Notes: generated by a model not told the origin, from the letters alone. Shown: positions 3,937 to 8,438, counted from the first letter of the stretch. The stretch: 32,000 bases of DNA from Candidatus Saccharimonadota bacterium (GCA_027925325.1 AP027133.1:60001-92000), one strand, 5' to 3'. Made by a program: numbers and translations.

Positions 3937-5364
3937 ATGGAAAAAAAAGATAACATAATTAGATCTTTTGAAAAAGATCCGATAAATTGATATACAGATA
4001 TAGTTTCTAAAGCAGAATTAATGATCTATGGACCAACAAAAGGAACGATGTATCTTCGTCCTTATGCACTCTCTATCTGAAATTTAATTGTAAAAAATTT
4101 GACAAAAGAATTTGAAAAAAATGGGGTGGAAGAGGTTAAATTTCCTTTAATTTTTCCTAAATCTTTATTAGATAAAGAAAAAAAGCATATTGAAGGATTT
4201 GCGCCCGAAGTTTTAGTTATTACACAGATTGGTGATAAAAAATTAAATGATTTTAATGTTATTAGACCGACATCAGAGATGCTCTTTAGTGATTATTTTA
4301 AAAAAACAATTAAAACTTATAATCAACTTCCGATTAAATTAAATCAATGAGTTAATGTAATGCGATGAGAAAATAATACAAGACCTTTTCTACGAAATTC
4401 TGAATTTTATTGACAAGAAGGACACACCGTTCATAATGATGAAGATGAGGCGAAATCTTTTGCTTTAAAGATTCATCAGATATATTCAAATTTTATAAAT
4501 AAAGCATTATTACTTCCTATTATAAGTGGTGAAAAAAGTTTGAATGAAAGATTTGCAGGTGCGATTAATTCATTTACACAAGAAGCAATATTAAAAGACG
4601 GACAGGCACTTCAAATTGCAACTTCTCATTATCTTGGTAATAGTTTTGCAAAATCAATTGACTTTAAAATTCAAAATAGTAAAAATAAGTATGTTTTTCC
4701 TTTTCAAACTTCTTGAGGAACTTCTACAAGATTAATCGGTGGAATTATTATGACTCATTCCGATAACAAAGGATTATTATTGCCATCTAAAATTGCTCCT
4801 TTTCAAATAGTAATTATTCCAATTAAAAATCAACAAAATAGCGAAAAAATAGAGATATTTTTAAATAATACATTTGCAAAATTAAAACGAAATTTTAGAA
4901 TTAAAATTGATGATAGTAATAATTCTTTCGGCTATCGAATGAATAATTGAGAAATAAAAGGTGTACCAATTATTATTGAAATCGGTATAAAAGAAGTTTT
5001 AAATCAAAATTTAATCTTAAAATTGAGATCAGAAGAAGATAAAAAATCAATAAATATTAATCAATTTAATTCAAAAGTTATCTCAAATTATTTAAAAGAC
5101 TATGATCAAAAAATACAAAAAAAAGCTTTAAATAATTTTTTAAATAGAAAAATTTGAATTAATGACCTTAAAGATTTAAAAACAAAAATATTGCAAAAAA
5201 AAGTTGTTTTTTGCTATTGAATTGAAGATTCAAAATTAGAAAATAAAATTAAAATCGAAACAGGGGCAACAATTAGACTTATTTATAAAGAGAAAAAATT
5301 AGCAACGGCGATAAATAAAAATCAACAAACAGATCAAGTGGCAATTTTTGCAAGAGCATATTAA
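3937..5364 (+). CDS. proS: prolyl-tRNA synthetase (archaeal/eukaryote-like class II type)
   Basis: ATG at 3937. Track ORFs 4099-4350 and 4750-4950 and the flanking segments share frame 1 across multiple TGA codons. The N-terminus WYTDIVSKAELMIYGPTKGTMYLRPYALSIW, then RPTSE and WVNVMRWE, is characteristic of ProRS. TAA stop at 5362-5364. Confidence 0.85.
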
Positions 5365-7147: not shown

Positions 7148-7224
7148 AGGGGTGTAGCTCAATTAGGCAGAGCAGCTGACTTCAGATCAGACGGTTGTGG
7201 GTTCGATTCCTGTCACCCCTGCCA
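7148..7224 (+). tRNA. trpT: tRNA-Trp, anticodon UCA (reads UGA/UGG)
   Basis: 77-nt cloverleaf folded by hand. Acceptor AGGGGTG/CACCCCT. D arm GCTC..GAGC. Anticodon arm GCTGA-CTTCAGA-TCAGA with TCA at 7182-7184. T loop TTCGATT. Discriminator G73 and an encoded CCA. A1-U72 with G73 is typical of bacterial tRNA-Trp. Confidence 0.9.
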
Positions 7225-7273: not shown

Positions 7274-7350
7274 AGAGATGTAGCTCAATTAGGTAGAGCA
7301 GCTGACTCCAGATCAGACGGTTGTGGGTTCGATTCCTTCCATCTCTGCCA
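7274..7350 (+). tRNA. trpT: tRNA-Trp, anticodon CCA (reads UGG)
   Basis: 77 nt and about 90% identical to the upstream tRNA. Acceptor AGAGATG/CATCTCT carries compensatory changes. Anticodon loop CTCCAGA with CCA at 7308-7310. G73 and an encoded CCA. Confidence 0.9.
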
Positions 7351-7418
7351 AAATATCTTAAAATTAAGATGATATCTTTTTTTAGGGCCAAAATTAAAAG
7401 TAAGTTAAATTATGTAAT

Positions 7419-7498
7419 AGGAGTGTAGCTCAATTTGGGGGAGCAGTTGGCATTTTTAAGAATGCTGGTGGTTGCAGGTTCAAATCCTGCCACTCCTA
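7419..7498 (+). ncRNA. tRNA-Trp-derived tRNA-like gene with a non-canonical anticodon arm (possible pseudogene or neofunctionalised RNA)
   Basis: 80 nt. Acceptor AGGAGTG/CACTCCT, D arm GCTC-AATTTGGGG-GAGC and T arm GCAGG-TTCAAAT-CCTGC are intact and collinear with the two Trp tRNAs. The anticodon region GTTGGCATT-TTTAAG-AATGCTGGT forms a stem of about 9 bp (5 Watson-Crick plus 4 G-U) with a 6-nt loop, or 8 bp with an 8-nt loop. This is 24 nt where 17 is normal. The discriminator is A and no CCA is encoded. Confidence 0.6.
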
Positions 7499-7514
7499 CT
7501 GTTTTGTTTAGAAT

Positions 7515-7552
7515 ATGAAAAAAGAACAAGTTAAGACTTGTTCTTTTTTCAT
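7515..7552. terminator. bidirectional rho-independent terminator between the tRNA cluster (+) and degV (-)
   Basis: Perfect 16-bp inverted repeat ATGAAAAAAGAACAAG / CTTGTTCTTTTTTCAT around the loop TTAAGA. A/T runs on both sides supply a U-tract in either orientation. Confidence 0.75.
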
Positions 7553-7565
7553 ATAGTTAATTGAT

Positions 7566-8438
7566 TTATCGATTTTTCTCGTGTACTATCAATCCAAATC
7601 CTGTTGCTCTTGGTCCGATATGAGCAACTATTTCTGGTGCTATTATTGTTTGTTCGAATTCTTTAAATCCCTCTTTTTGCAATTTTTCTTTTAGAATACT
7701 AAAATTTTTATCAGAATTAAGATTAATTGCTTTTAATTCAACACGATATCCTTTTTTAATTCAATTATTATATTGCTTTTTCAAAATTTCAATCGCCTTA
7801 TCATAAGCTTTATTGATTGTTCTTTTTTTAATTATATCTTCACTATCAATTCTTCCGTTTTTTACAACTATAATTGGTAATACTTTTAAAAAACTTCCAG
7901 CAATATATTGAGTTTTAGTAATTCTTCCACCTGCATATAAAAAATCTAAGGTATCAGGAATTAAAAACGCATTCATTTTATCTTTTAAAAATGAAAGTTT
8001 TTCAATGATAAATTCCATTTTAACTTCATCATTTTCAATTCATTTTTTAAGATTTACAAATTCATGATATATTCAAGGGGTGATAAAATTTGAATCAAAA
8101 ACAAATACCTTTCCTTTGTATTTTTCTTCATCTACTAATACTTTTATCATTGAATTCATTGAAGAAAGATATTTTGAAATTGTAATTATTAATAATTGAT
8201 CAACTTCTTTTAATGCTTTTTTAATTTCTTGTTCTACATCGCCTAATTTTGCAGTTGATGTCTGCACCTTTGTTTTAAGACTCATATTATCTAGTAAAAA
8301 TTTATTATCAATGTTAATTCCAGATTTATATTCTTTTCCATCAATATTAATAATAAGAGAAGAATAATAAAATCCCATTTCTCTTGCTTGTTTTTCTGTT
8401 AATCCTGTAGAGGAGTCAATTAGCAAACCTTTTTTCAT
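7566..8438 (-). CDS. DegV family fatty-acid-binding protein (paralog 1)
   Basis: Track ORFs 8073-8438 and 7761-8018 plus the 7566-7760 tail share one frame across TGA codons (8073, 8040, 7761). It starts MKKGLLIDSSTGL, has GGRITKTQY, and ends with a HIGP..G motif, as DegV proteins do. An AGGAG RBS lies upstream. TAA stop at 7566-7568. Confidence 0.85.

Follow-up and report, generated by a model that had tools for sequence, protein, structure and literature searches.

We tentatively favor the view that an 80-nt gene lying behind two tandem tRNA-Trp genes of Candidatus Hepatoplasma scabrum (Table 1) encodes a lineage-restricted, selected tRNA-like RNA that would be non-chargeable and would act outside translation as a mimic of uncharged tRNA. 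The window, that is, the whole 32,000-nt stretch of DNA analyzed here, comes from this Mollicute gut symbiont of woodlice; its ProRS is 100% identical to the ProRS of the MAG 'Candidatus Hepatoplasma scabrum', and its long ORFs require UGA to be read as Trp (code 4). The MAG, of 606 kb, was obtained from Porcellio scaber and assembled with SPAdes from Illumina reads only (PMC10928387). Hepatoplasma genomes are streamlined to 0.6 Mb at 94% coding density (PMC3942034), and mobile elements were reported absent from the genome carrying the tRNA-like gene. The G+C content of the window is 21.2%, compared with 24.7% given for H. scabrum in the stored text of Table 2 of PMC10928387, a gap that may come from variation along the genome or from shifted columns in that table text. 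Gene order runs from ProRS through two hypothetical genes and the acyl carrier protein gene to tRNA-Trp(UCA), tRNA-Trp(CCA), the tRNA-like gene, a strong hairpin, and two convergent degV genes. The NCBI record of H. scabrum names the DegV-family protein encoded at 7566-8438 (PF02645, P0121) '6-phosphogluconate dehydratase', likely a misannotation. Nearly all genes in the window terminate in TAA. The same locus in H. crinochetorum Av was analyzed for its adjacent Trp tRNAs by Leclercq et al. 2014 (PMC3942034), and we found no third gene mentioned in the text of that paper.

Table 1. Features of the Trp-tRNA locus, with positions counted within the window.
Feature	Position	Strand	Basis or remark
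tRNA-Trp(UCA), encoded CCA, first gene of the operon, closest paralog of the tRNA-like gene	7148..7224	+	ARAGORN; Rfam tRNA, 59.1 bits
tRNA-Trp(CCA), encoded CCA	7274..7350	+	ARAGORN; Rfam tRNA
Spacer hairpin UCUUAAAA...UUUUAGGG, then CC, between tRNA-Trp(CCA) and the tRNA-like gene	7356..7387 (with CC to 7389)	+	MFE folds, four lineages
tRNA-like gene	7419..7498	+	ARAGORN; Rfam tRNA model; folds; orthologs; model R1
Acceptor stem of the tRNA-like gene	7419..7425/7491..7497	+	
D arm	7428..7444	+	
Extended anticodon-position arm	7446..7469	+	Kept in all orthologs; sequence unique in the window
T arm	7474..7490	+	
Discriminator A	7498	+	
CTG at the CCA position	7499..7501	+	CTA in the Ps and Av lineages
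A-tract/hairpin/T-tract, GAACAAGT-TAAG-ACTTGTTC, with A6 and T6 flanks	7517..7550	+	By inspection
degV, convergent neighbor, synteny anchor	7566..8438	-	Code 4 translation; PF02645

From 5' to 3', the tRNA-like gene reads AGGAGTG TA GCTC AATTTGGGG GAGC A GTTGGCAT TTTTAAGA ATGCTGGT GGTT GCAGG TTCAAAT CCTGC CACTCCT A, with a perfect 7-bp acceptor stem, canonical D and T arms, and a variable region of 4 nt (GGTT). ARAGORN returned an undefined type ('tRNA-???', 7419-7499) with a 4-base 'anticodon', ttaa. The Rfam tRNA model (RF00005), run with Infernal, scored the gene at 43.1 bits (E=4e-6) and the Av ortholog at 45.8 bits, both beyond the gathering score of 29 bits; the 43.1 bits are far above chance. 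By score and by its acceptor, D, and T arms, the gene therefore falls within RF00005. Both programs had been proposed in a preliminary description of this DNA, and the tRNA shape of undefined type that they return agrees with the sequence on the intact acceptor stem, D arm, and T arm reported there. In each of the four lineages carrying the gene the MFE fold is the cloverleaf, and the core nucleotides U8, A14, A15-U48, G18 G19, and G46, together with the T-loop TTCAAnT, are invariant among them.

With the anticodon arm excluded (56 nt compared), the gene is 80% identical to tRNA-Trp(UCA) and 73% to tRNA-Trp(CCA) of the window genome, while the Ps orthologs are 86-88% identical to the former and 77-82% to the latter. 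Since identity of the body to tRNA-Trp(UCA) reaches 80-88% and exceeds that to tRNA-Trp(CCA), the gene appears to be a duplicate of the UCA-type tRNA-Trp gene, which upholds its earlier designation as a third tRNA-Trp paralog and narrows it to the UCA type. It is a tRNA-Trp by descent only, as judged by body identity: no ortholog has a CCA or UCA triplet at the loop position, and the discriminator is A73 in four of the five sequences (window, L044, L053, and Av), with G solely in L045. The G73 discriminator is an identity element for bacterial TrpRS. Compared with tRNA-Trp(UCA) of the same operon, the gene shares the tandem position, a near-identical acceptor stem, a related D arm, the GGTT variable region, and the T arm; it differs in that its arm has 8 bp with a 7-8-nt loop instead of 5 bp with 7 nt, a UCA/CCA anticodon is absent, A73 takes the place of G73, and CCA is not encoded. 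Identity as a tmRNA, YrlA RNA, or T-box was rejected, Rfam matches at threshold being absent. Neither the Rfam tmRNA nor the YrlA model matched the gene, and the sole YrlA match (27.7 bits, gathering score 69) spans the two Trp genes.

Syntenic intervals were retrieved through relatives of ProRS and DegV. Orthologs of the gene were found at the same spot (acyl carrier protein, tRNA-Trp(UCA), tRNA-Trp(CCA), tRNA-like gene, terminator, and degV) in three other H. crinochetorum-type lineages, so the search for orthologous loci suggested beforehand was successful. H. crinochetorum Ps (L044) carries the gene, as do two independent Logan assemblies (L045 and, partially, L053) and the Av lineage (L050 and L054-L059). 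The last comprises the Av genome CP006932, Tokyo2021 (AP027132), one NCBI contig, and four Logan runs, all with an identical gene. Neither H. vulgare nor a vulgare-like contig has the gene, the terminator there directly following tRNA-Trp(CCA), and its distribution therefore points to a gain in the scabrum/crinochetorum clade. A covariance model (R1) built from the four distinct sequences gave homologs 90-106 bits, against at most 63 bits for ordinary tRNAs, and detected no further copies in the 456 kb scanned. A degenerate pattern of the gene matched only contig JACCDS010175187.1, already found, in the JGI metagenome scan and nothing in the viral contig scan; a generic D-arm pattern returned 43 viral loci, where tRNAs, serving as negative controls, scored at most 63 bits by R1. 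A profile search of genome contigs with the DegV alignment gave, among the matches listed, only H. vulgare and an unrelated Lachnospiraceae contig. A literature search for Mollicute tRNA-like RNAs with a long anticodon stem or without CCA yielded nothing specific, and the supplements of the Hepatoplasma genome papers contain no tRNA lists.

Conservation of the fold was assessed from the alignment of the four distinct sequences, which represent one small clade. All 94 stem cells in the alignment are paired and none is broken. Four pairs changed on both sides, one per helix (7-66, 10-25, one in the long arm, and 50-64), and eight others switched between G.U and A-U or G-C through a change on one side only. 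In the long arm, where covariation had been singled out as worth checking, a C-G pair became U-A and no pair was lost; the remaining changes there are G.U/A-U exchanges, and the three outer pairs of the stem show only purine transitions opposite U, which would be tolerable paired or unpaired. RNAalifold recovers the same cloverleaf from the alignment. When 14 stem transitions, the number observed, were placed at random in simulations, all pairs stayed intact in 0.4% of trials, or in 1.4% under AT bias set at tenfold. With only four distinct sequences from one small clade, statistical support for covariation is modest (P about 0.01). At the level of primary sequence, window and Ps differ at 8 of the 80 nt (90% identity), compared with 64-67% identity in spacers and 72-74% at degV third codon positions, the neutral yardsticks for this pair, so that conservation exceeds neutral expectation with P about 3e-4 or less. 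The Av gene is 72-75% identical, versus 67-69% at third positions, and its G+C content is down to 35%, with every pair kept; this almost neutral divergence and loss of G+C could reflect relaxed selection in the Av lineage. Gene conversion from the Trp genes was rejected as a cause of conservation: differences specific to the tRNA-like gene are common to the lineages, and its arm has no donor. Given 94 of 94 paired stem cells and 90% identity against 64-74% at neutral sites, plain decay appears unlikely. The stem-breaking changes of a neutrally decaying tRNA pseudogene were not seen, and the apparently selected tRNA-like fold places the gene among pseudo-tRNAs and tRNA-like ncRNAs. Between the two histories that the preliminary description had raised, a decaying duplicate and structure-preserving evolution, the paired stems in four lineages, the two-sided change in each helix, and the above-neutral conservation between window and Ps argue for the latter, toward which it had leaned.

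At the anticodon position, an 8-bp stem (GTTGGCAT/ATGCTGGT, with four G.U and four Watson-Crick pairs) carries the 8-nt loop TTTTAAGA, bearing out the long arm noted earlier. In thermodynamic folds the hairpin closes to 7-10 bp with a loop of 3-4 nt, and Infernal treats the arm as a 23-nt insertion replacing the 17-nt anticodon arm. The 8-bp stem and 8-nt loop depart from the RF00005 pattern of a 5-bp stem and a 7-nt loop with U33, a 3-nt anticodon, and a purine at position 37. Only L044 and L053 have a 7-nt loop, likewise on an 8-bp stem; it reads UUUAAGA (U33, anticodon UAA, G37, and A38), differs at two positions from the tRNA-Trp(UCA) loop CUUCAGA, and is called tRNA-Leu(taa) by ARAGORN. 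The loop is UUUUAAGA (8 nt) in the window and L045 and UUUUUUAG (6/8 nt) in Av, where a usable anticodon is lacking and ARAGORN misses the gene. The earlier statement that no canonical 7-nt loop can be drawn does not hold, as UUUAAGA with anticodon UAA can be drawn in the window with one U of the T5 run bulged and is present without a bulge in the Ps ortholog.

The T run of the loop has 4, 5, or 6 residues depending on the lineage (window 7454-7458; L044 9527-9530; L045 4192-4196; L055 minus strand, within 3950-4027). Because T4 and T5 are each backed by two independent assemblies, the run behaves as a length-variable homopolymer. The assembly artifact over 7446-7469 that the preliminary description wished to see excluded is unlikely, and an error in the T run was rejected in view of the Illumina/SPAdes origin of the MAG and the T5 run of the independent Logan assembly L045. 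The idea that a repeated palindromic element had inserted into the anticodon loop was likewise rejected, the arm being unique in the window and in the other loci examined. The DegV proteins of the window, L044, and L045 are about equally distant from one another (identities of 0.89-0.90), with Av as the outgroup (0.82-0.85), so the 8-nt loop is, most parsimoniously, probably ancestral and the tidy 7-nt loop of Ps, which resembles that of tRNA-Leu(UAA), derived.

An encoded CCA is absent from the gene in every lineage, the three nucleotides after the discriminator being CTG in the window and CTA in the other lineages, again in departure from RF00005; both Trp genes and the tRNA-Arg(TCT) gene of the window do encode it. 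In these respects, A73 with no CCA in this gene and CCA in the other three tRNA genes, the preliminary description was accurate. Grosjean et al. 2014 placed the loss of the CCA-adding enzyme and RNase Z at an early Mollicute node shared with the loss of RF2, and reported that Mollicute tRNA genes all encode CCA (PMC4014445). Their survey covered other Mollicutes, and absence of the enzyme presumably extends to Hepatoplasma, which uses the UGA=Trp code and branches within the enzyme-losing Mollicute group. Without an encoded CCA or a CCA-adding enzyme, the RNA would not be chargeable.

Decoding by this RNA is unlikely, because CCA is missing, the CCA-adding enzyme is reported lost, the loop is unconserved, and Av has no usable anticodon. 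The notion of an unusual decoder with an expanded loop, entertained at the outset, finds no support, given a loop that varies, the absence of encoded CCA in all lineages, and the reported lack of a CCA-adding enzyme in Mollicutes (PMC4014445). UUA accounts for 63 per 1000 codons in Av and 71 per 1000 in the window. Given this heavy use in Av and an Av gene without an anticodon, another tRNA must read UUA, and from codon use a normal tRNA-Leu(UAA) must be encoded elsewhere in the genome. The gene itself does not qualify as tRNA-Leu(UAA): the conserved 7-nt loop with UAA is confined to L044 and L053, with 8 nt in the window and L045 and no UAA in Av, and the variable region, at 4 nt, is not the long arm of a class II tRNA. 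Nor does it qualify as a frameshift-suppressor or quadruplet-decoding tRNA, given its 8-bp stem, lack of CCA, and loops differing among orthologs. An ochre-reading role is disfavored because almost all genes here end in TAA. DFAST relies on ARAGORN. The published tRNA counts (Prokka/ARAGORN and DFAST), 27 in Av, 27 in Tokyo2021, and 28 in scabrum, fit a common set of 27 plus the tRNA-like gene where ARAGORN detects it. Among working tRNAs, the longest anticodon stems listed in a review reach 6 bp (PMC7609411).

The tandem tRNA-Trp(UCA)-tRNA-Trp(CCA) arrangement is found in M. capricolum, S. citri, and Hepatoplasma (PMC3942034). ARAGORN labels tRNA-Trp(UCA), a 77-nt ordinary cloverleaf, as tRNA-SeC in every Hepatoplasma locus; the label is an artifact of the UGA=Trp code and the UCA anticodon, and the gene is not a selenocysteine tRNA. 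UGG is almost unused (1 TGG versus 54 TGA in 12 window genes), and among Hepatoplasma lineages tRNA-Trp(CCA) is 84-94% identical, versus 97-100% for tRNA-Trp(UCA), with acceptor-stem changes compensated. tRNA-Trp(CCA) looks nearly redundant, yet every lineage has kept it, CCA end included.

The spacer hairpin begins at UCUU right after tRNA-Trp(CCA) and ends right before a conserved CC in all four lineages carrying the tRNA-like gene, with the consensus UCUURAA...UUYRRGR then CC, and is absent from H. vulgare. Its arms covary (A-U / G.U / G-C) by inspection, and its folding energies are weak and, alone, not significant. The weak hairpin and T7 run (7366-7383) that were thought to separate the tRNA-like gene from tRNA-Trp(CCA) do not form a terminator: the T run is the 3' arm of the spacer hairpin, and CC and A-rich sequence with no T tract lie downstream. 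The hairpin may mark a point of processing, perhaps by RNase III, or of pausing. The A-tract/hairpin/T-tract element is the only convincing terminator at the Trp operon; an equivalent hairpin stands at the same place in all orthologous loci, and the element looks like a bidirectional terminator common to the tRNA operon and the convergent degV. A simple terminator scan does not list it. Because the spacer hairpin is not a terminator and this element is the only convincing one, the simplest view is that the tRNA-like gene comes last in the Trp operon. A promoter of its own was considered and rejected, since -10-like hexamers abut the gene in every lineage but at varying spacing to it and to a conserved GGRCC motif, and a promoter scan near the gene found nothing above chance. 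The sole sigma-70-like match in the region (CTGCCA-16-TAGAAT at 7487-7514, plus strand) overlaps the 3' end of the gene and is probably due to chance, as the count is below shuffle expectation. The spacer between the two Trp genes is 38-49 nt in lineages carrying the tRNA-like gene. In H. vulgare (L047 11288-11438) the Trp genes lie 150 nt apart, with a strong GC-containing hairpin and T8 right after tRNA-Trp(UCA), and the operon may be split there into two units.

Under the reading that we tentatively prefer, a further tandem duplication of tRNA-Trp(UCA) in the ancestor of H. scabrum and H. crinochetorum would have produced a copy that keeps the full L-shaped tRNA body but has lost its CCA end and carries a hairpin of 8-10 bp, rebuilt from the anticodon arm. 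The polymerase would read through the spacer hairpin and transcribe the gene together with both Trp tRNAs, RNase P would cleave at its 5' end, and the 3' end would be trimmed to a few nucleotides beyond the acceptor stem. Lacking aminoacylation, the product would stay outside EF-Tu and the ribosome. It may then serve as a stable ligand of, or competitor for, proteins that read the tRNA body, such as RNase P, modification enzymes, or possibly TrpRS, a guess among several, with the long arm providing a new lineage-specific surface.

The gene could alternatively be a dead tRNA-Trp duplicate, in which the lost CCA, the G73A change, and the rebuilt arm are lesions and the stems have survived through short time and AT-biased transitions. 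We consider this unlikely, if worth serious thought. That CCA is missing in all lineages, that the loop T run varies freely among 4, 5, and 6 residues, and that the Av copy, at 35% G+C, diverges near the neutral rate are all expected of such a relic; the neighboring tRNA-Trp(CCA), with UGG almost unused, is also under relaxed constraint. The four two-sided pair changes all run from G-C to A-U, the direction of mutation bias, but two substitutions went against the bias (A to G) and still formed G.U, and no cell among 94 was broken by 14 stem substitutions (P 0.004-0.014, tenfold AT bias included). Against decay also stand the 90% identity between window and Ps, compared with 64-74% under neutrality, and the extended arm, which was already in the common ancestor and has outlasted near-saturating divergence at third codon positions. 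In streamlined 0.6-Mb genomes of 94% coding density (PMC3942034), useless DNA would moreover be expected to be deleted. Decidedly unlikely, in our estimate, is a cis-acting role, in which the gene would be a processing or stability module of the Trp operon and the released RNA would have no function of its own. The tRNA shape would recruit RNase P, whose cut would release tRNA-Trp(CCA), together with its trailer, from the strong terminator hairpin; alternatively, the folded RNA would shield the 3' end of the transcript. H. vulgare and the vulgare-like strain run the same operon without the gene, although wherever present it lies between tRNA-Trp(CCA) and the terminator, downstream of the positionally conserved spacer hairpin. 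Mollicute tRNA 3' ends are matured by exonucleolytic trimming by a single RNase, RNase Z being absent (PMC4014445), and an extra downstream RNase P site could help. Such a module would require only the acceptor/T-arm half and the overall fold, matching the freely varying loop; the long arm, needless for an RNase P handle, is nonetheless identical between window and Ps over 29 aligned columns bar one T indel, and conservation also extends to the D arm and the core tertiary nucleotides, which is more than RNase P needs.

A73 is the major LeuRS determinant in E. coli. A working non-canonical adaptor is highly improbable in any of three forms: an extra tRNA of the tRNA-Leu(UAA) kind that reads UUA/UUG, a tRNA whose 8-nt loop decodes quadruplets or is prone to frameshifting, or an ochre reader with a UUA anticodon. 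The perfect 7-nt UUUAAGA loop of Ps and L053, called tRNA-Leu(taa) by ARAGORN and only two positions from the CUUCAGA of tRNA-Trp(UCA), fits the first of these, as does A73 in four of the five sequences, with G in L045 speaking against it. Loop length and sequence are unconserved, however, with the 8-nt loop ancestral by parsimony; yeast mitochondrial tRNA-Thr, which arose from another isoacceptor family and has an 8-nt loop, provides a precedent (PMC3113583). No lineage has CCA, position 76 is G in the window, and the CCA-adding enzyme is reported absent in this Mollicute branch. The 8-bp stem is given as 3 bp longer than in the decoding tRNAs described (maximum 6 bp, PMC7609411). The abundant UUA codons of Av need another tRNA, and an ochre reader would be harmful where nearly all window genes end in TAA. 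We give almost no credence to the further proposal of an active adaptor or aminoacyl carrier that gains its 3' end by an unspecified route or uses a CUA end, undergoes LeuRS-type charging via A73, and serves in ribosomal reading of UUA/UUAA, in programmed frameshifting, or as an aminoacyl donor outside translation; if true, it would represent a tRNA geometry not known to function.

By analogy only, the nearest described functional counterpart of the gene is a bacterial pseudo-tRNA such as Bacillus cereus tRNAOther, which is described as a pseudo-tRNA without function in translation (PMC3399842). Both would be chromosomal tRNA-shaped RNAs of Firmicute-derived lineages, retained outside decoding, a likeness of function and not of compared sequence. 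tRNAOther is reported to flank a genomic island and to be expressed within longer RNAs (PMC3399842), whereas the Hepatoplasma gene sits inside a tRNA operon. tRNA-Sec, tRNA-Pyl, and mitochondrial tRNA-Ser(UCN) likewise combine an anticodon stem longer than 5 bp with a short variable region (PMC7609411), the latter being 3 nt in tRNA-Pyl and mitochondrial tRNA-Ser(UCN) and 4 nt here. They reach 6 bp through 26-44 pairing and compensating changes, with a 7-nt loop and CCA kept (PMC7609411), in contrast to the 8 bp (up to 10 in thermodynamic folds), variable loop, and absent CCA of the Hepatoplasma gene. Yeast mitochondrial tRNA-Thr(UAG), derived from tRNA-His, shares a foreign isoacceptor origin and an 8-nt loop, but it is charged, reassigns CUN, and has a conserved loop on a canonical stem (PMC3113583), so that the two differ in CCA, stem length, and loop conservation. 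The tRNA-like domains of tmRNA and YrlA (RF00023 and RF02553) also mimic the tRNA body with the anticodon arm replaced by a non-decoding part; unlike them, the Hepatoplasma RNA stands by itself as an 80-nt cloverleaf whose own 5' and 3' ends lie at the acceptor stem. No description of a tRNA-like RNA with this architecture in Mollicutes was found in the literature.

For annotation, ARAGORN reports the gene as tRNA-Leu(taa) in Ps, as 'undefined' in the window and L045, and not at all in Av, which fits the differing tRNA counts of otherwise collinear genomes. Mollicutes have the most reduced translation systems known and have been used to define the minimal tRNA set and its processing, with neither a CCA-adding enzyme nor RNase Z. 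If our reading is true, the gene would be a compact natural case of a tRNA duplicate leaving decoding as its CCA was lost, its discriminator changed, and its anticodon arm was rebuilt. A selected, unchargeable tRNA-shaped RNA in a 0.6-Mb genome would then mean that even such genomes devote sequence to a tRNA mimic.
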